Part shown: positions 1 to 19,434 of the stretch, one piece after another
How positions within the stretch are numbered: the first letter of the stretch is position 1
Layout of the letters: every line of letters starts with the position of its first letter
Assembly (NCBI GenBank): GCA_025839675.1
Contig: CP104013.1
Span: forward strand, 660,001 to 692,000
Reading direction: 5' to 3'
Source of the DNA: Candidatus Lokiarchaeum ossiferum
GTDB taxonomy: Archaea; Asgardarchaeota; Lokiarchaeia; Sigyniarchaeales; Promethearchaeaceae
Length of the DNA: 32,000 bases
Made by a program: the position numbers and the translations under genes
Notes under the pieces: model-generated
Told to the model about the DNA's origin: nothing
The model's database searches: none
Seen by the model: only the letters and a program-made list of their open reading frames with translations

Positions 1-418
1 CCTCATCATAGTTTTTTAAAATATTAATATAGTCAAAATAACCGTGAGATTTCAAAATACTATCTACATTCTTATGAAATGGATTAAAAGTACCAACATC
101 GCCATTAAAATTGGTCACTTTCTCCAAAAATAAATCTAAAAACGTATCTCTGATTTGAATCAGGATTTTTCGGATTATTTTTTCAAATTCTTTATCCTTT
201 GTTAAAATAACAAAAATTAAATCCTTATATCGATCAAAGATGTAAGTGGTTAAATTTAAAGTAATTTCTTCAATAACTTCCCCGCTTTGCCCTTTGGCAA
301 ACATATTTAAGGCTGTGAGAAAACCAGAGATCAAATTTGCATCCGAATCATCATCATCACTTGTCCATGTGAAGTAACTAATTCCCGCATCATTCATAAC
401 CAAAATTCGATCAATCAT
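1..418 (-). CDS. Longin/Roadblock-like small regulatory-domain protein, N-terminal part only (gene runs off the window start)
   Basis: Not in the supplied track because there is no stop in the window. A reverse-strand ATG at 416-418 opens an uninterrupted frame to position 1. I translated it manually: MIDRILVMNDAGISYFTWTSDDDDSDANLISGFLTALNMFAKGQSGEVIEEITLNLTTYIFDRYKDLIFVILTKDKEFEKIIRKILIQIRDTFLDLF... The strand-strand-helix-strand-strand-strand-helix pattern resembles longin/roadblock folds. The fold call is by eye only. Confidence 0.5.
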   Translation of the reverse strand, partial: MIDRILVMNDAGISYFTWTSDDDDSDANLISGFLTALNMFAKGQSGEVIEEITLNLTTYIFDRYKDLIFVILTKDKEFEKIIRKILIQIRDTFLDLFLEKVTNFNGDVGTFNPFHKNVDSILKSHGYFDYINILKNYDE

Positions 419-2734: not shown

Positions 2735-3580
2735 ATGGAACACTCAAACTCTGAAGAAGAAGATCTTCAAGGAATTGATAAAGCTTACGTTAATCGTGCG
2801 ATGATTGGAAGTTTAATTGCTACTGTGTTAGTAAGTATTGGAATCTATTTGTTAGGATGGTTTATAGTCTGGGTAAGCTCAGATGAACCAAATCCAGTGG
2901 ATCAATCTAAAATGTGGCCGATCATATATCTCTCAATGGCAATATTTTTTGTAGTTGTGAATTGTTTGGTATATCTTGTTTCAAATTTATATGTGAACCA
3001 CTTTTCCTATTCGATATCAGATAAGTTCATTAAAATTCGTTATGGAGTATTCACACGAACAAAAACAACCATCCCATTTTCTCGAATTCAAAATGTAGCA
3101 GTTTTTCAAAATATTCGGGATCGCATCTTAAATATCTATACTGTCAAAATAGAAACAGCAGGAGCAAGTATTGCGGGATCTGGAGCACAAGGGGGTACAG
3201 TCCATCCTGAAGGATATATTCCAGCAGTTCGAAATCCTGAACACCTAGAATCACTTATTAACAAATTGGTTCACCAATATACTCAAGATATTTCGGGAAA
3301 TGTAAAAGAAAATGTGTTTACAGATAATAATGTGGCATTTGATGAATTTATTGCATATTTCTTATCTAAAATGCGAGAAAAAAATCAAATTCGAACAAAT
3401 GTTGAACAGCTAAGAACGCAAAGTGGAATGACCCAAGAAAAATTAGCAGAAATGGCAGGAGTGGCGGAAACAACTATCAAATATTTGGAAGATGGAGAAT
3501 ATGTGCCTTCACTGACTTTAGCTCTACGAATTGCACAAATATTCAAAGTATCAATAGAACAGATATTTCAACTCAACTAA
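2735..3580 (+). CDS. Membrane-tethered regulator: two TM helices + bPH_2 (YdbS/YdbT-type bacterial PH) domain fused to a C-terminal XRE-family HTH
   Basis: The track ORF starts at GTG 2669; I prefer ATG 2735 (MEHSNSEEED...). Two TM helices (AMIGSLIATVLVSIGIYLLGWFIVWV; WPIIYLSMAIFFVVVNCLVYLV) are followed by FSYSISDKFIKIRYGVFTRTKTTIPFSRIQNVAVFQNIRDRILNIYTVKIETAG, typical of PF03703-type bPH domains. The C-terminus LRTQSGMTQEKLAEMAGVAETTIKYLEDGEYVPSLTLALRIAQIFKVSIEQIF is a classic HTH_3/XRE. Confidence 0.8.
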   Translation: MEHSNSEEEDLQGIDKAYVNRAMIGSLIATVLVSIGIYLLGWFIVWVSSDEPNPVDQSKMWPIIYLSMAIFFVVVNCLVYLVSNLYVNHFSYSISDKFIKIRYGVFTRTKTTIPFSRIQNVAVFQNIRDRILNIYTVKIETAGASIAGSGAQGGTVHPEGYIPAVRNPEHLESLINKLVHQYTQDISGNVKENVFTDNNVAFDEFIAYFLSKMREKNQIRTNVEQLRTQSGMTQEKLAEMAGVAETTIKYLEDGEYVPSLTLALRIAQIFKVSIEQIFQLN

Positions 3581-12048: not shown

Positions 12049-13059
12049 TTATGATTTTTCGATACGATGGATGGGTGGAGGCATATCGATATTTTCTTCT
12101 TGATACTTAATCATTATCCGTTTTACTAATTCATCCTTCAATTTTGAAACTGTTTTAAAATCCTTCGATTTTAAAATAATATTCAAATCAATTGTGAAAT
12201 CTCCAATATTCTCCCATAATACAGCTGAATCCTTCGAATTATCACTAAAATCACTATTTTTCTGTATATCGTCAGCTAATTCTTTAGTAATTGAATAAAC
12301 ACGATTGATATCTTCATTTTGTGAAATCCCAAGCTTTAAAGAAACAGATTTGGGAAGATTATTTAAACTATAATTGGTAATGGGGGATGATATGAACATT
12401 ATATTCGGAATGAAAAAATAGTCATTGGAATAGGATCTTAAACGTGTCCCAGTCCATTTTATATCATCTACAAATCCTTTCGACCCTCCAATTTCAATAT
12501 AATCACCAATCGAAACGGGTTTAGTGGCAATTACGTATAAACCAGATAAAAATGATTCTAATGGGGTTTTTATGGCCAAACCAATTGCAATGCTTGAGAT
12601 TCCTAATGTTGCGATAAGAGGCGTTATGTCTATGTTGAATGAAGAAAGTAACATCATGATAGCGATAATAAAAATGATGAATTTTCCTAGTTTCAAGAGA
12701 ATGTTTGGTGTTTTTGATAATTTCTGCTTATATTTCTGATTTCTTATCAAAAAGGTTTCAAAAAGGCTTGAAAAAATAAATGACGACATAACAAATATTA
12801 ACATCTTACCGATGTTTACCACTGTATTTTTAACGGTTTCATCCTCGAAGCTACTTGCAAAAAAGAGTATCGCAACTATAGAGCTGAGTATAATAATTTG
12901 AAATAAAAATTTGCGGAACATTGCAGTTAATTGCGGATTTTCTCCTTTAAAAATGAGCTTTCTACTTATAAGAATTATAACTATGCTTGATAAAACCAGA
13001 ATTCCTATTTTCATAAGAAATTCAATTTCGAGTAATGTATCCCAATTTATTGTGAGCAT
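12049..13059 (-). CDS. Mechanosensitive ion channel, MscS family
   Basis: Three N-terminal TM helices followed by ATKPVSIGDYIEIGGSKGFVDDIKWTGTRLRSYSNDYFFIPNIMFISSPITNYS, the MscS beta-domain signature. The track start at 13074 is TTG; the first ATG is at 13059. Confidence 0.85.
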   Translation of the reverse strand: MLTINWDTLLEIEFLMKIGILVLSSIVIILISRKLIFKGENPQLTAMFRKFLFQIIILSSIVAILFFASSFEDETVKNTVVNIGKMLIFVMSSFIFSSLFETFLIRNQKYKQKLSKTPNILLKLGKFIIFIIAIMMLLSSFNIDITPLIATLGISSIAIGLAIKTPLESFLSGLYVIATKPVSIGDYIEIGGSKGFVDDIKWTGTRLRSYSNDYFFIPNIMFISSPITNYSLNNLPKSVSLKLGISQNEDINRVYSITKELADDIQKNSDFSDNSKDSAVLWENIGDFTIDLNIILKSKDFKTVSKLKDELVKRIMIKYQEENIDMPPPIHRIEKS

Positions 13060-13193
13060 ATCGTAGTGCACCAAGAAACGAAGTTGATTTTTTACAACTT
13101 GTTACATCAGTATGAAAGCACAACTCTTTTAATACTTCTTGTGACATAGACAATAAGAGTGTTTTAAATAGAAAAATTGAATGTGTGCTTCTA

Positions 13194-14633
13194 ATGTGGC
13201 TATCAACTTTAATCATATCCCTATGTTTCCTTGCAGTGATAGTACTCTTAGTTCTTGAGAAAGGGAATCGCGTTATACTTGCTATTTCAGGTGCGTTAAT
13301 TTGTTATCTTTCACTCGTATTTATAGAGAAGGAAACAGATTTCACTCTTTTTGTGGGATTTTTATTCGGAACGAGTGAAGATGGTTTTGTAAATATTCAT
13401 TCCCTATTATTGATTTTTGGGATGTCATTTATTATCCAAATTGTAAATAAAGCTGGAGTTTTCAAGTTCCTCGCTTTCAAATTGGTATTATTAGTAGCAG
13501 ATAAACCTAAATACCTGCTTTTCATAATGTGTAGCATAACAATGATCCTTTCAGCAATATTGAATAATATTTTAACTGTTATGATCATTATCCCTCTTAC
13601 TATTACGATTTCTCGTATTTTAAATATTGATCCTGAGCCTTTTATAATATCACAAGCAATTCTAGTTAATATTGGAGGGACGATGTTTTCAATTTCTTCA
13701 ATTCCAAATATTTTAATTGCTACCACGGCAGGTATCTCCTTCAATGACTTTTTCCTTAATGTAGGTATCATATCTATTGTAGTTTTCTTCTTCACAGTAG
13801 GATTATTCTATTTAATATATGAAAAAAAAATCAGGATCCCTACAGAGAACATAAAAATATTAAAAGAATTTAATCCTTGGAACTTTGTTGCGGATAAAAA
13901 ACTATTATTCAAATCATCCATAGTCCTAATTATTGTGATAATTTGTTTTATGGCAATTCCATCGACAATCTTGGCACCTGATATTATTTCCTTAATAGGG
14001 GCAATGGTTCTGGCAGTTATCTCAAAACTGGATCAAGAAAAATTACTTCAAAGTATTGACATTGAAATAATAATGTACCTTTTAGGCATTTTTATAATAG
14101 CAGGCTCGTTAGAATACACCGGTATTTTAAATTACGTAGGGACGTTTATCGGAGCGATTGGACAAGGAAATTCCTTTTTTACAATCCTTTTAATTCTCTG
14201 GACATCTGCAATTCTGAGTTCGACTATTGATAACATTCCAATTACAAAAGTACTTATTCCGGTGGTTGGACAAATTGGAGCACAGAATTCTTTGATCATA
14301 CAAGATAAAATGTTTTATGCTTTATCCTTTGGTGCAAATTGGGGAGATAATTTGACCCCGATGGGCGACAATATCTTAGTTATGAATCTTGCTGCAAAAA
14401 ATAAACGACCTTTGCGAATGAAAGAATTTTGGAAAGTCGGATTTATTACGACACTTTTTCAGCTTTATCTCTTAACCAGTTATTATGTATTCTTCTTGAA
14501 TAAATTCATAAGCATCCTAATGCTTATATTATTAATAGTTTTCATATTTCTGGTATATCTAAGAGCATATAATCCAAAACTATTTTTAAAAATTAATATA
14601 TTCAAGAAAAAGCAAAAAATTGAGGTAAAATAA
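13194..14633 (+). CDS. ArsB/NhaD (CitMHS) superfamily ion/anion permease
   Basis: FIMCSITMILSAILNNILTVMIIIPLTITISRILNIDPEPFIISQAILVNIGGTMFSISSIPNILIA and FGANWGDNLTPMGDNILV match hallmark hairpin regions of CitMHS/ArsB-NhaD permeases. The start is GTG 13185 (track) or ATG 13194. Confidence 0.85.
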   Translation: MWLSTLIISLCFLAVIVLLVLEKGNRVILAISGALICYLSLVFIEKETDFTLFVGFLFGTSEDGFVNIHSLLLIFGMSFIIQIVNKAGVFKFLAFKLVLLVADKPKYLLFIMCSITMILSAILNNILTVMIIIPLTITISRILNIDPEPFIISQAILVNIGGTMFSISSIPNILIATTAGISFNDFFLNVGIISIVVFFFTVGLFYLIYEKKIRIPTENIKILKEFNPWNFVADKKLLFKSSIVLIIVIICFMAIPSTILAPDIISLIGAMVLAVISKLDQEKLLQSIDIEIIMYLLGIFIIAGSLEYTGILNYVGTFIGAIGQGNSFFTILLILWTSAILSSTIDNIPITKVLIPVVGQIGAQNSLIIQDKMFYALSFGANWGDNLTPMGDNILVMNLAAKNKRPLRMKEFWKVGFITTLFQLYLLTSYYVFFLNKFISILMLILLIVFIFLVYLRAYNPKLFLKINIFKKKQKIEVK

Positions 14634-14635
14634 GC

Positions 14636-15028
14636 ATGGTTTTAAGAAATATGAAAAGTATCAAAGATTTGATCCATGGAGTAATCCATATAATGATGTT
14701 TTACAATAATGGAATTGTTTTTCAGACAACTTTTCCTTCTGAGAAGAATATTCCTTTAATTGGAGAGAAATTGTCACTTATAGTCAATCAAATGCAAAAT
14801 TTGATGAAAATGTATGATGAAAACGAATTATCCTATAAGAAATTAATCTATGAAACTGATAATTATATCATCGCAATAATAAAATTAGGAGAAGAGAGTA
14901 ATTTAGCATTACTATTGGATAATAGCCCAACAGACTCTTTGGAATTAAAAAAAATCAAAAAATTTATTGATAAGTTAGAAGAACTGATTGACATGGACAA
15001 AGAAGAATTGGTTCACGAGAATGCCTAA
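14636..15028 (+). CDS. Roadblock/LC7 (MglB-like) domain protein, 130 aa
   Basis: The ATG lies 2 nt after the permease stop, with GAGGT at 14623-14627. IKDLIHGVIHIMMFYNNGIVFQTTFP ... LIYETDNYIIAIIKLGEESNLALLLDNS follows the Roadblock alpha-beta-beta-alpha-beta-beta-beta pattern. The fold call is by eye. Confidence 0.6.
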   Translation: MVLRNMKSIKDLIHGVIHIMMFYNNGIVFQTTFPSEKNIPLIGEKLSLIVNQMQNLMKMYDENELSYKKLIYETDNYIIAIIKLGEESNLALLLDNSPTDSLELKKIKKFIDKLEELIDMDKEELVHENA

Positions 15029-15507
15029 TGCTCTCATCGGTTCCCTCCACTTTTTGTATTCACTTTTATTTTTTTATAACCGCCTCATTTTTGAACATTC
15101 TAATATTACTGAGAACAATTTTTCTCTCATATTCTTAAAACTTCACATAATCCTGAGAAGAAATTCAAAATATTTAAATAAAAGTTCAATACAATAGAAT
15201 TCAAACTCGAGAAACATTTAAAGTGAAGTATTTATTCCTTAATTTGGTTATTTTACATAAAGCCTCAAAATATGAAAAAATATTCATTTTCGCTTAGTAA
15301 TTGATTTGAAATTAAAATATACATCTTTTTTTTATTATATAGGTTGTAAATTCGCCCTTCCCGATTCTCATTGTTCAATTTTGACTCCCAAATTCCCAAT
15401 AGGTCAACACTTTGGATAATATTTCGTGGTCGTGGTTAGAATGTTAGTGAAATACTCCCTTGTGGGATTTATATGAAGTTTGATTAATAAACAAAGATGA
15501 TTAAAAG

Positions 15508-16728
15508 TTGGAAATCCAAAATAATCGGCATAAAGTGCTTATCCCGAAATGGCTAAGAATTTTTGATATTTTATCTGGGATATTGTATGTGATAGTAGCT
15601 TGTCTTAGTATCATAAATTTAGACCATAAGCAAATAGCAAGGGTTTATCTTCTGGCAATTAATCTACTTCTTTTGGGATTTGTAAAAATTATTTCAGGGT
15701 TAAATTACAACAAAATTAGCAAAAAAATGTTGGTTCTAAATGCATTTATGGGTATTAGTATTATAGTTTTTGCAATTTACATCATTCTTATTCCAGATAT
15801 GATTTTTGAATCATTGGTTTTACTAATCTTAATTGCGATAATGGGTCAAGGAATATATCGCACTTTATTTGCAATTTTTAATAAAAAACTAAGTATTTGG
15901 GCCACATTTGTAAATTTGAGTATAGGAATTTTAATGATTGCAATTTCCACAATTGTATATCAGACCACAAATTTATCAATTGAGATATTAATAGTACTTT
16001 TATCAATCTCCTTTATAATTAATGCTATTGGAAGAATTTTATCGGGCATTTCCGGTTATTATAATAGTAGCAAAATTTTGACAAGATCACAACCTACACG
16101 AAAAAATTATAGATTATTTTTATGGATAATGACTTCAGTTATGCTTTTATCGATCGTTTTCGCAATCATATTTTATCCTGAACAATACCTTTGGAACGAA
16201 GAATACATTAGCAATTTGGGTCGCATTTCCAGCCGTTCTGGTCTTGAAAACACAACGTCCAGATTAATTTTTACAGTTGGATTCCTGTATGTTAGTGCGA
16301 GTATGTTTTTTCTATCTATATTCATATTATTTGATAAAAAACTAAATAAACTTGATGTTTCAAAAAGTATTTTTCTATTCTTATCGGGTGTTGGCTCTTT
16401 AGGCACTGCGGTACCAACGGGTTTACCAGAAACATCGTCCATTCACATTTGGGGAACCGCTTTGTTTATCTTTTCATTCATTGTCTTTTTAATTTTATCA
16501 CATTTTGTAAAATATAAAAAAACCAAACTGAATAAAAGGAAAAAAACAGATGATATTTTTGACAAATCATTTTCGTTTGTTGTAGTTATTTGCACTACAC
16601 TTTATTTACTTACCTTTCTTTTCAAGATAGAACAGTATGTTTACTTAGCACAGAAAATTGTATTTCTGCTTCTGATAATTTTAGTGCTTTTATTGGATAA
16701 AGAAGATTTTAGTGAATCCTTTAAGTAA
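15508..16728 (+). CDS. Membrane protein: N-terminal DUF308/HdeD-like domain fused to a DUF998-like C-terminal polytopic domain
   Basis: Residues 14-190 align at about 40% identity by eye with the 17274-17840 product (shared AIFNKK-x3-WAT, RILSG-x2-GY). The C-terminal half has an ISNLG motif after its first helix, as in DUF998. It must start at a non-ATG codon (TTG 15508 or GTG 15535), because the first ATG is codon 74, inside the conserved region. Confidence 0.7.
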   Translation: MEIQNNRHKVLIPKWLRIFDILSGILYVIVACLSIINLDHKQIARVYLLAINLLLLGFVKIISGLNYNKISKKMLVLNAFMGISIIVFAIYIILIPDMIFESLVLLILIAIMGQGIYRTLFAIFNKKLSIWATFVNLSIGILMIAISTIVYQTTNLSIEILIVLLSISFIINAIGRILSGISGYYNSSKILTRSQPTRKNYRLFLWIMTSVMLLSIVFAIIFYPEQYLWNEEYISNLGRISSRSGLENTTSRLIFTVGFLYVSASMFFLSIFILFDKKLNKLDVSKSIFLFLSGVGSLGTAVPTGLPETSSIHIWGTALFIFSFIVFLILSHFVKYKKTKLNKRKKTDDIFDKSFSFVVVICTTLYLLTFLFKIEQYVYLAQKIVFLLLIILVLLLDKEDFSESFK

Positions 16729-16785: not shown

Positions 16786-17184
16786 ATGGTAAAAATATTC
16801 ATAAGCTTTCGTAAAAACGATGACGAATTTCGGCTAAAAATAAAAGAAGATTTAGAGAATAATCATTTCCATTTCTCTAGTGTATAGAAATACACAGCAG
16901 ACCATATCAACGAATTTAGTCCACTAAAAATAGAAAAAATAATTAAATCAAAGATGAAATCGTGTCAAATTGTAATTTATTTAGTTGGAAATGCTTCATT
17001 TAGAAGTAAATGGCAGGATGCAGAAATGAAGCTTGCTTTAAGGCAAAATTTGCCAATATTCCTAATTCGAATACCAAAAACAACAGGTCCAGTTCCACAA
17101 CCAGTTAATCATCTACATGCAATAAATTGGGAACCAAAATTAATAATAAGCAAAATTAAAGAAAAAACGAATTCTTTGAATTAA
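16786..17184 (+). pseudogene. TIR-like (DUF1863 / MTH538 / ThsB-like) gene interrupted by a single in-frame TAG at 16885-16887
   Basis: My manual translation from ATG 16786 is MVKIFISFRKNDDEFRLKIKEDLENNHFHFSSV*KYTADHINEFSPLKIEKIIKSKMKSCQIVIYLVGNASFRSKWQDAEMKLALRQNLPIFLIRIP... The track ORF 16954-17184 is the in-frame continuation (16954-16786 = 168 nt). The FISF..D start and the IVIYLVG-x3-F-x2-S-x-W-x3-E core match TIR-like DUF1863 landmarks. Confidence 0.6.
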
Positions 17185-17273: not shown

Positions 17274-17840
17274 TTATTTCTGTTCCTGATCTAGTTTGAC
17301 ATACCCTTGAACACCAGATAGAATTCTTACAACTCCATTTAAGAGAAATATAATTGTAAGGATGACAATGAGAGATAAGAGAGCCAAATCTTGATAGAAA
17401 AAGACGAAAATACATATTCCCACTGCGAGTAACCCCACAATCAAATTCATTAAGGTTGCCCAAAATTTTATTTTTTTATTAAAGATAGCAAATAAAATTC
17501 TATATAATCCCTGAAGTAACAAACTTGCCCCTACAAGGACTAGTACACCAATTGTTCCCCAATCTGGATAAATAATAGTCAAAATACTTGCAGCAATAAA
17601 AATTAGACCTAGGAAGAAATTGAATAACATCCAGCCTTTTGAAACTAGCTTATAATTAATTCCATTCATAATTTTTGCAAAACCCATTAAAAACAAATTT
17701 GCGGCTAGAAAATAGACCAAAGTCAGTGTTTCTAATTGCAAATTATAAAATAATGCTCCCGAAATAAGTATATACAGCATACCAATAATTATATTAAATA
17801 CACGTAGCCAAGGAGGCATTTTAACACCGATTTTCACCAT
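17274..17840 (-). CDS. DUF308/HdeD-like membrane protein (paralog of the 15508-16728 N-terminal domain)
   Basis: Six hydrophobic helices. It is a clear paralog of the neighbouring convergent gene. ATG 17840 (MVKIGVKMPPWLRVF) or ATG 17819 is preferred over the track TTG at 17885. Confidence 0.75.
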   Translation of the reverse strand: MVKIGVKMPPWLRVFNIIIGMLYILISGALFYNLQLETLTLVYFLAANLFLMGFAKIMNGINYKLVSKGWMLFNFFLGLIFIAASILTIIYPDWGTIGVLVLVGASLLLQGLYRILFAIFNKKIKFWATLMNLIVGLLAVGICIFVFFYQDLALLSLIVILTIIFLLNGVVRILSGVQGYVKLDQEQK

Positions 17841-18217
17841 AATTTTCACTCCAAAAATTAGAGTAATTACAATATAGCATTGCAAACTTTATTAATGTGT
17901 TAGGAATTTTTTAATTGCAATTTCCAATATTGGCTATTGAAAAATAAGAAATCAAAAGCATAATAAATCAAAATAATGAATTAACTGAGAATTTTGCATT
18001 CTTAGATGATTATGTTGTAAAAATATTATTTGAAAGATTTCATCAAGCTGGAAAAAAAGAATAAAAGTTCAATTTAGTAAAAAAGTGTAAAAAACATAGA
18101 TTTCATGCAAATCGCCTTCAAGCCTCAGAACTCTCAGATTAAGGTCTTAGGATTGAAATAATTGACTTGACACTCCAAAATACCACAATCCTCCTATTTT
18201 TGTTCAGAAAAAAAAAC

Positions 18218-19285
18218 TCATTTCGAAAAGAAATTCTTACGCTTAAAATAATATATCATTAAACCTACAACAATAACCATGACGCCGATCAATATTGGAT
18301 AGGAGGGTTTCCAGTCCAGTTCAGGCATATATTTGAAATTCATACCATAAAAACCAGACATAAAGGACAATGGGATAAAAATGGTTGAAATAATCGTCAA
18401 AACTTTCATAATATCATTCATTTTATTACTTACACTGGATAAATAAAGATCAAACATGCCAAAAATAATATCTCGTTGATTATCAATAAGATCGGACAAT
18501 CTAAATATATGATCATATATATCTCGAAAATAAATTTCTAGTCCAGAGGAAAATAATGGAGATGCTTCTCGTTGAATTTTATTGATTACTTCTCTTAATG
18601 GCCATATTGATTTTCGAAAATCATTAACATCTCGTTTCAATCGGTAAATACTTTGTAACAATACCGGTTTAGGGTCATCAATGACAGGATCCTCCAAACT
18701 TTCTATGGAGGATTCAATTATATCTATGATGGAAAAGTAAGTATCAATGGTTATATCGATTAAACAATAGAATAAATAATCGGCAAGAGAACTTCGAACT
18801 TTACCTTTCGGCAAGGAAATACGCTCTAAAATAGGTAAAAAGAGATTTCCTTCGCGTTCTTCAAATGAGAGAACATAATTTTTTCCCAAGATTAAGCTCA
18901 CTTGATCATAAGTAATTTCATTCGATGGAGCATCCCAATAAATGTTTTTTAGAACGGTATAAATGTAGGTTCTATAGTCTTCATATTTAGATCTTTGTGA
19001 AGTAGCAAAGATATCTTCCATTACAAGGGGGTGTATTTCGAATAAATTTAATACCTGTGAAATTAGATCAATATTTTTTAAACCAATAATTCGAATCCAG
19101 CGAACGGATTGTTCAAAATGAGGAGCAACATCACATTTTTCTGTTGTAATTTCTCGGGTTTCAAAATTTTGTTCATTAAATTCGATTATATATGCTTGAG
19201 TTTCAAATGCTGCTTTTTCTCCACTATATACAAGAGTTCCAGGAGGTAATCCTTGTTTTTTTCCTTTTTTGTTTCTTTTAATCAT
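18218..19285 (-). CDS. corA: CorA-family Mg2+/Co2+ transporter
   Basis: C-terminal TM pair with the signature YGMNF (FMSGFYGMNFKYMPELDW) and a long cytoplasmic N-terminal domain. ATG 19285 is preferred over TTG 19306. Confidence 0.9.
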   Translation of the reverse strand: MIKRNKKGKKQGLPPGTLVYSGEKAAFETQAYIIEFNEQNFETREITTEKCDVAPHFEQSVRWIRIIGLKNIDLISQVLNLFEIHPLVMEDIFATSQRSKYEDYRTYIYTVLKNIYWDAPSNEITYDQVSLILGKNYVLSFEEREGNLFLPILERISLPKGKVRSSLADYLFYCLIDITIDTYFSIIDIIESSIESLEDPVIDDPKPVLLQSIYRLKRDVNDFRKSIWPLREVINKIQREASPLFSSGLEIYFRDIYDHIFRLSDLIDNQRDIIFGMFDLYLSSVSNKMNDIMKVLTIISTIFIPLSFMSGFYGMNFKYMPELDWKPSYPILIGVMVIVVGLMIYYFKRKNFFSK

Positions 19286-19434
19286 TAACCCATTATGGGT
19301 AGACAAATCAAATAAATCTTCATACTGATAAATCCAAAATTTAATTGGCTACAATTTCAAGAATGAAAAAAAAAACCGTGAAAAAAAGCAATTTACTGCG
19401 CAAAATCCAGTTTCATAAATCATTTTAAATAAAA

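Follow-up and report, generated by a model that had tools for sequence, protein, structure and literature searches.

What is the gene of a small Roadblock-fold protein doing two nucleotides behind that of a solute permease in an archaeon, and do the two products work together? The question is raised by a 32,000-nucleotide stretch of Candidatus Lokiarchaeum ossiferum DNA (contig CP104013.1, positions 660,001 to 692,000), which is referred to here as the window and whose positions are used throughout unless another locus is named. A sequence-only reading of the window had described the two genes as almost certainly co-expressed, had suggested a direct partnership between a transporter and a Roadblock protein, and had surmised that the host might be an Asgard-type archaeon, which Lokiarchaeum indeed is. 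Here we report how widely the gene pair is conserved, what the two proteins are predicted to be, and which explanations of their association best account for the data.

Conservation of the gene pair

Of 400 Asgard genomes, 112 encode the small protein, 121 encode the permease orthologue, and 108 encode the two together, and the pair is present in at least seven Asgard families. A species-level pattern scan, using one genome per bacterial or archaeal species, yielded 87 relatives, 80 of which are listed and form the basis of the locus counts given below. One of these 80 lies at a contig edge; in 78 of the remaining 79 assessable loci a permease gene is adjacent to the small-protein gene and co-directional with it, immediately upstream in 75 cases and immediately downstream in three. 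This adjacency, which answers the earlier suggestion that the frequency of the pair be surveyed among archaeal genomes, is far beyond chance. The three loci of reversed order (from genomes G257, G261, and G264) form one clade on the permease tree, which points to a single rearrangement in which adjacency was preserved. The genes that flank the pair vary from locus to locus, and two loci (L044 and L051) contain a tandem duplication of the entire pair.

The lone unlinked copy of the small-protein gene (L150/L075; G216:C70:23050-23421) contains an in-frame TAG and is missing its first ~12 residues; judged by these lesions, it looks like a decaying orphan. Arrays with extra permease genes were also observed (L009, L079, and L054), in the order permease-Roadblock-permease-permease or permease-permease-Roadblock, so that the dosage of carrier to partner is not always 1:1.

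The source labels of the 80 listed relatives read either Asgard or 'uncultured archaeon', with the single exception of a Nanopelagicaceae metagenome-assembled genome. The locus in question (L138; DATKTW010000125.1, Candidatus Nanopelagicaceae bacterium) carries an Asgard-type pair with 54% and 42% identity to the window proteins, and is probably an Asgard contig assigned to the wrong bin. For the permease, the top 120 homologues among 5.8 billion proteins were all of Asgard origin where a source was named, and their annotations read 'SLC13 family permease' or 'NhaD/arsenite permease-like'. By their source labels, therefore, both protein subfamilies appear to be confined to Asgard archaea, and the gene pair points to what may be a transporter-plus-adaptor unit.

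A natural fusion of the two proteins would have been a further indication of partnership. One candidate, a 145-amino-acid (aa) metagenome fragment (P0092) in which the permease tail is joined through a tryptophan to the Roadblock N-terminus, was rejected as evidence of such a fusion: the tryptophan stands where relatives have TGA (GGGTGA; L078, L085, and L088), and the fragment is thus most simply explained as a TGA read as Trp on a short contig. Full-length permease-Roadblock fusions were absent from the 69 clusters retrieved in the exhaustive profile search described below.

Coupling signals of the two-gene unit

The permease gene occupies positions 13194-14633 on the forward strand (479 aa; ATG at 13194, TAA at 14631-14633), an alternative GTG start at 13185 being likewise open, and the Roadblock gene follows at 14636-15028 on the same strand (130 aa; open reading frame (ORF) from the ATG at 14636). 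The junction reads AAA ATT GAG GTA AAA TAA GC ATG GTT, which agrees with the 2-nt gap between permease stop and Roadblock start noted previously. The GAGGT that had been taken for a Shine-Dalgarno (SD)-like site in the permease 3' end is present at 14622-14626 on the forward strand, within the last codons of the permease and 9 nt 5' of the Roadblock ATG. This pentamer can pair with the genome's own 16S rRNA at its 3' end, ...GGATCACCTCC, and at background frequency a 5-mer from the anti-SD complement would turn up within the appropriate span ~4% of the time.

The same arrangement recurs among the orthologous junctions; over 43 distinct ones, the gap has a median of 7 nt and does not exceed 14 nt in 36. 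AGGTGA, again complementary to the 16S 3' end, is kept ~7 nt before the start of the Roadblock gene, and it often spans the last codon and the stop of the permease (AGG TGA), for example in L092, L109, and L134 (bases ~2477-2500). The 2-nt gap, the GAGGT that matches the 16S rRNA, and this conserved AGGTGA together bear out the view that the pair is arranged for coupled expression. Because the SD motif overlaps the end of the permease gene, the permease C-terminus (...IIR) owes part of its apparent conservation to the nucleotide level. A partner-specific permease motif was considered and rejected for this reason, the frequent ...IIR/K ending being largely the AGG-TGA overlap.

The first codons of the Roadblock gene tell a similar story. 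Among the 80 listed species the codon is ATG in 48, TTG or GTG in nine, and a non-canonical one in 20 (ATA in 17, ATC in two, and CTG in one), usually with an in-frame stop just upstream. Non-canonical starts (codon at position 2501) were found in L083, L088, L091, L097, L099, L100, L103, L106, L112, L113, L115, L127, L131, L133, L136, L138, L140, L146, and L147. Conservation of residues 2-20 does not drop when the start is non-canonical (72%, compared with 67% for canonical starts), and hence the N-terminus is translated in the genes that start with ATA, ATC, or CTG. Such starts fit initiation that would be SD-driven or termination-coupled, performed by ribosomes finishing the permease. Gene callers cut these proteins to an internal methionine (entries of 188-192 aa that start with MFYNNG), since the first codon is non-canonical.

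Signals that may delimit the transcription unit were also read from the window. The motif TTTAAATA at 13163-13170 on the forward strand, ~28 nt 5' of the permease ATG, is a candidate archaeal TATA box, since archaeal TATA boxes are known to stand at such a distance; with this spacing, the permease mRNA would be leaderless or nearly so. Oligo-T terminators are in use among archaea, and the T5, T4, and T7 tracts at 15051-15075 on the forward strand, 23-47 nt past the Roadblock stop, represent a candidate terminator of this kind. The two elements fit an archaeal two-gene transcription unit.

The two proteins and their surroundings

Sequence comparison alone does not place the small protein within a known family. 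Pfam Robl_LC7 (PF03259) matches it with an E-value (E) of 0.034 and 14.3 bits, below the 23-bit cut-off, covering profile positions 13-90 of 91, and PF03259 matches were obtained for only three of 27 family members (best E 0.0013). The AlphaFold2 model has a predicted local distance difference test (pLDDT) score of 76.9 overall and of 78-96 in the core, and it displays the order α1-β1-β2-α2-β3-β4-β5-α3, with helices at residues 5-12, 39-60, and 104-119 and strands at 16-23, 28-31, 69-73, 77-83, and 88-95. When this model was compared to the PDB using Foldseek, the best 50 matches were all Roadblock, MglB, dynein LC7/Robl, or LAMTOR (MP1-p14) structures, with a probability of 1.00, E between 8e-8 and 1e-5, and template modelling (TM) scores of up to 0.70 (query-normalised) and 0.83 (target-normalised); the top match was 9jue (E 7.7e-8). 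The Roadblock fold proposed for this protein is thus upheld by the predicted topology and its structural matches. The protein is no closer to LAMTOR subunits than to MglB or dynein LC7.

Profile methods give marginal evidence of kinship with other Roadblocks. The family profile matched only 9jue (Roadblock3 of Prometheoarchaeum) among PDB sequences, with E 0.019. When the broad family alignment was compared by hhalign with eight canonical Roadblocks encoded in the Lokiarchaeum genome, the result was a probability of 57% and E 1.1e-4, with 113 columns in register. When 1.84 billion representative proteins were searched exhaustively with a profile, only 69 clusters were retrieved, and the family is therefore narrow; no canonical Roadblock family member was recognised among those 69 clusters. 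On the strength of the structural model, we regard the small protein as a diverged Roadblock-fold family that lies outside the PF03259 sequence family. Its gene is single-copy in the Lokiarchaeum genome.

Three family-invariant motifs were identified, namely FYNNG at the β1-β2 turn, KLGE-SN at the β4-β5 turn, and ELIDMD at the end of α3, and strand β3 holds the family-invariant residues K69, I71, and E73. Roadblock domains are usually dimers, and a homodimer of this protein would be expected to form via helix α2 and strand β3. The family alignment contains no invariant Cys or His, and a metal-chaperone role resembling that of ArsD was rejected on these grounds. A defence-system reading was likewise rejected, since neither protein has a PADLOC match and the distribution is single-copy and vertically conserved.

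The window protein stops soon after helix α3 (...ELIDMDKEELVHENA) and is hence stalk-less. In most orthologues, by contrast, α3 is prolonged as a C-terminal coiled coil made up of charged heptads (70 to ~430 aa, maximum 436), a feature that the sequence-only reading had not noted. It measures ~70 aa in the commonest family, ~170 aa in some, and ~430 aa in one family (proteins of 550-561 aa), and loci L040-L044 confirm that the long-stalk proteins are orthologues of the window protein. The long tail is 52% charged and has a dominant hydrophobic period of 3.45 residues, as a coiled coil would show. Stalk-less forms are found in several lineages and retain the permease pairing, and it follows that the conserved function sits in the Roadblock domain.

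The permease, previously described as of the ArsB/NhaD type, matches Pfam CitMHS (1.7e-50; 172.5 bits, cut-off 31.9) and ArsB (5e-9; 36.4 bits, cut-off 22.2). The best NCBIfam matches are MamN, ArsB, and DASS, each of which falls far under its cut-off (133 bits against 500 for the MamN model; 85 against 457 and 72 against 415 for the ArsB models), and consequently its substrate is left unassigned and it does not qualify as an ArsB equivalog. The AlphaFold2 model, built from 42 orthologues, has a pLDDT of 85.9. Its best Foldseek match, in accordance with the earlier description, is ArsB (10tp; E 3e-14, TM 0.78/0.86), followed by the dimeric elevator carriers VcINDY, NaS1, NaCT, and Pho90. The domain matches and the model thus identify the protein as an elevator carrier belonging to the ion transporter (IT) superfamily, of the ArsB/NhaD/CitMHS type and MamN-like. 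Beyond the ArsB-like core there is an additional C-terminal hydrophobic helix (437-459), followed by a strongly basic tail. Both this tail and the loop before the last helix pair are basic and, by the positive-inside rule, the C-terminus is probably cytoplasmic. The alignment contains 58 invariant columns, and the transport-domain motifs of the superfamily are strongly conserved. The same genome encodes ~8 further IT-superfamily paralogues (27% identity or less), which are devoid of a Roadblock neighbour.

A number of nearby genes deserve mention. An MscS-type mechanosensitive channel and a CorA Mg2+ channel are encoded on the reverse strand at 12049-13074 and 18218-19306, and genes of both kinds are again found close to the pair in the distant loci L001 and L078, a loose ion-homeostasis setting. 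In one Loki-type locus (L004), a gene for an ArsR-type HTH_5 regulator (2954-3376) immediately precedes the permease gene and shares its strand, the corresponding place in L007 being occupied by an unannotated gene of 137 aa. At the window edge, an ORF end at 2-418 (reverse strand), belonging to a gene that exceeds the window, matches the first longin domain of FUZ/MON1/HPS1 (PF19036, E 9e-7). A 76-aa ORF at 16954-17184 (forward strand) has weak TIR_2 and ThsB_TIR matches (E ~2e-4) and is flanked by convergent genes for DUF308 membrane proteins (15508-16728 and 17274-17885).

Possible functions of the pair

Near-absolute adjacency, an order inversion that adjacency survived, expression signals reliant on the gene upstream, and the decay of the one unlinked copy constitute the pattern that one would expect of two subunits of one complex. 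We consider it somewhat probable that the Roadblock protein serves the permease as a dedicated subunit on the cytoplasmic side. Of the direct partnership that had been suggested from the sequence, the association is argued for by its wide conservation, while physical binding, stoichiometry, and effect are what we infer. In the model that we favour, the two genes would form one co-expressed unit comprising a homodimeric IT-superfamily ion/anion carrier and a Roadblock accessory subunit. The Roadblock protein would dimerise and, as a dimer, would attach to the permease dimer from the cytoplasmic side, where it would modulate transport or take the carrier as its membrane platform. Since the carrier's solved relatives are two-fold symmetric dimers and Roadblock proteins are usually dimeric, a 2:2 assembly is the simplest model. 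In most other Asgard lineages, helix α3 would continue as a parallel coiled-coil stalk reaching into the cytoplasm; the Lokiarchaeum protein would then represent the minimal, stalk-less form, with the conserved job performed by the Roadblock domain.

Several observations weigh against a dedicated subunit. Permease orthologues with 44-48% identity occur in genomes G279-281, G124, G126, and G127 without a recognisable partner, and the extra tandem permease copies of L009, L079, and L054 are also partnerless; the carrier can therefore exist on its own. No permease feature that tracks the presence of the partner was found, and the C-terminal tails, which were compared, are variable. Furthermore, simple allosteric regulation could do without the long coiled coil of other lineages, whose presence hints at an additional partner. 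As regards the missing partners, the deep-branching permease of L067 (37% identity) still carries a diverged one, which suggests an old association followed by later losses.

The main rival to a permease subunit, which we judge to be unlikely though not far-fetched, is that the Roadblock dimer acts as a platform with GTPase-activating or guanine nucleotide exchange activity, similar to MglB or Ragulator, for a Ras-like GTPase encoded elsewhere, with the permease providing the membrane location and perhaps substrate sensing. All characterised Roadblocks among the structural matches are indeed GTPase partners or parts of motor complexes, and the genome is rich in Ras-like GTPases, with 68 matches. 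The earlier reading had stated that the window lacks a GTPase gene, and we concur that none of its ORFs of at least 100 aa contains a GTPase domain; however, in Prometheoarchaeum MK-D1 GTPase genes are generally located outside the operons of their regulators (PMC10933270), and genomic distance therefore does not exclude a GTPase partnership. Against this, canonical Roadblocks of the same Lokiarchaeum genome are enriched near Ras-like domains, six of 14 matches being within 5 kb of one (~10% would be expected at random positions) and three being fused to one, whereas the pair lies 20.9 kb from the nearest. Moreover, across the ~90 loci examined there is no conserved GTPase neighbour, and in nine Pfam-annotated orthologous neighbourhoods there is no small GTPase and only one unrelated NOG1. 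The family has, in addition, diverged past Pfam recognition, so that a canonical binding surface need not persist.

A further possibility is that the small protein is co-expressed with the permease but does not bind it, serving in the permease's pathway as, for example, a cytosolic ion sensor or handler or a stress-response factor. Operon membership alone is no proof of contact, some permease orthologues are without the partner, and the MscS and CorA genes in the window, L001, and L078 suggest an ion-homeostasis setting. Yet 1:1 adjacency over at least seven Asgard families that survived an inversion of gene order, start codons that apparently depend on the upstream gene, and the decay of the sole unlinked copy are features seen more typically among subunits of a single complex, and the lack of invariant Cys or His residues does not suggest ion handling; we regard this explanation as quite unlikely. 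It seems very improbable, finally, that the protein is in essence a coiled-coil tether or cytoskeletal link for which the permease is chiefly an anchor. Stalks of up to 436 residues with the composition and periodicity described above would suit such a role, and an N-terminal domain of the longin/Roadblock type followed by a coiled coil recalls the longin SNAREs; however, the window protein and several lineages are stalk-less yet paired, and a carrier that keeps 58 invariant columns and its transport motifs is unlikely to be a mere anchor.

Comparison with known systems places the putative permease subunit among several partial parallels. MglB is the bacterial Roadblock/LC7 GTPase-activating protein of the Ras-like GTPase MglA. 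Its structures (3t1r, 6hjm, and 1j3w) resemble the small protein in fold, size, and stand-alone prokaryotic nature (Foldseek E ~2e-6, TM 0.60-0.67), but MglB is defined by its GTPase partner, whereas here no GTPase is linked and the neighbour is a permease. Unlike MglB, the small protein falls under the Pfam threshold and most of its orthologues possess a coiled-coil tail. The best structural matches are the solved Asgard Roadblocks (9jue and 7yh1 of Prometheoarchaeum MK-D1 and 7f8m of Thorarchaeota; TM 0.65-0.70), which are from the same phylum as the window protein and form homodimers; they differ in sharing only 14-18% identity with it and in belonging to the canonical PF03259 family, and linkage of Asgard Roadblocks to transporters is not reported in PMC10933270.

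The sequence-only reading had invoked the Ragulator (LAMTOR1-5), Rag GTPases, and SLC38A9 as the eukaryotic counterpart. Roadblock-fold proteins do lie at a membrane beside a solute carrier in that system, and Ragulator MP1/p14 is among the fold matches of the small protein (1veu and 2zl1). The likeness is nevertheless one of analogy, without kinship: the permease is of the IT superfamily, whereas SLC38A9 belongs to another transporter superfamily, and Ragulator consists of heterodimers with a lipid-anchored subunit and acts via Rag GTPases. The Lokiarchaeum pair, in contrast, has a single Roadblock gene per locus in nearly all loci, an IT-superfamily carrier, and no Rag-like neighbour, and a heterodimeric set of the Ragulator kind is excluded by the single copy per genome.

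In the arsenite pump, ArsA alters how ArsB works, and the ArsA-ArsB couple resembles the pair as an IT-superfamily permease with a soluble cytoplasmic partner from the same operon; however, ArsA is a P-loop ATPase instead of a Roadblock protein, and the window permease is not an ArsB equivalog. Actinobacterial conservons (CvnA-D) similarly unite a Roadblock protein, CvnB, with a membrane protein in one operon, but they include a GTPase (CvnD), and the membrane protein is sensor-kinase-like instead of a carrier. As for MamN, its branch (TC 2.A.45.2 in the Transporter Classification) includes the best NCBIfam match of the permease, although the score is far from the cut-off and no magnetosome context exists here; to our knowledge, no partner protein has been described for MamN. 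Between one and five MamN-like ArsB-family carriers of this branch are present in every Asgard proteome analysed (PMC7997004).

A description of a Roadblock-permease pair was not found in the searchable literature. Asgard archaea possess a set of eukaryote-like signature proteins, to which the Roadblock and longin proteins are assigned. Partners are known for almost none of them, since their genes rarely occur in GTPase operons (PMC10933270). With the present data, a diverged Roadblock family gains an unambiguous conserved partner, which is a solute carrier instead of a GTPase. If the Roadblock protein is indeed a subunit of the permease, it would represent a new class of accessory subunit for the elevator carriers of the IT superfamily. 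One may go further and envisage an Asgard-specific 'transceptor', in which the carrier signals ion or nutrient availability through its Roadblock subunit, and in most lineages by way of the long stalk, to small GTPases or to cytoskeletal or membrane-remodelling machinery. We hold this to be a long shot; were it true, it would be a prokaryotic forerunner, or an independent invention, of the logic of lysosomal nutrient sensing by Ragulator and SLC38A9. The Asgard archaea that host the pair are the closest prokaryotic relatives of eukaryotes, and the pair offers a two-protein system in which roles of Roadblock proteins that are independent of GTPases and directed at membrane proteins may be tested as they would have existed before eukaryotes.

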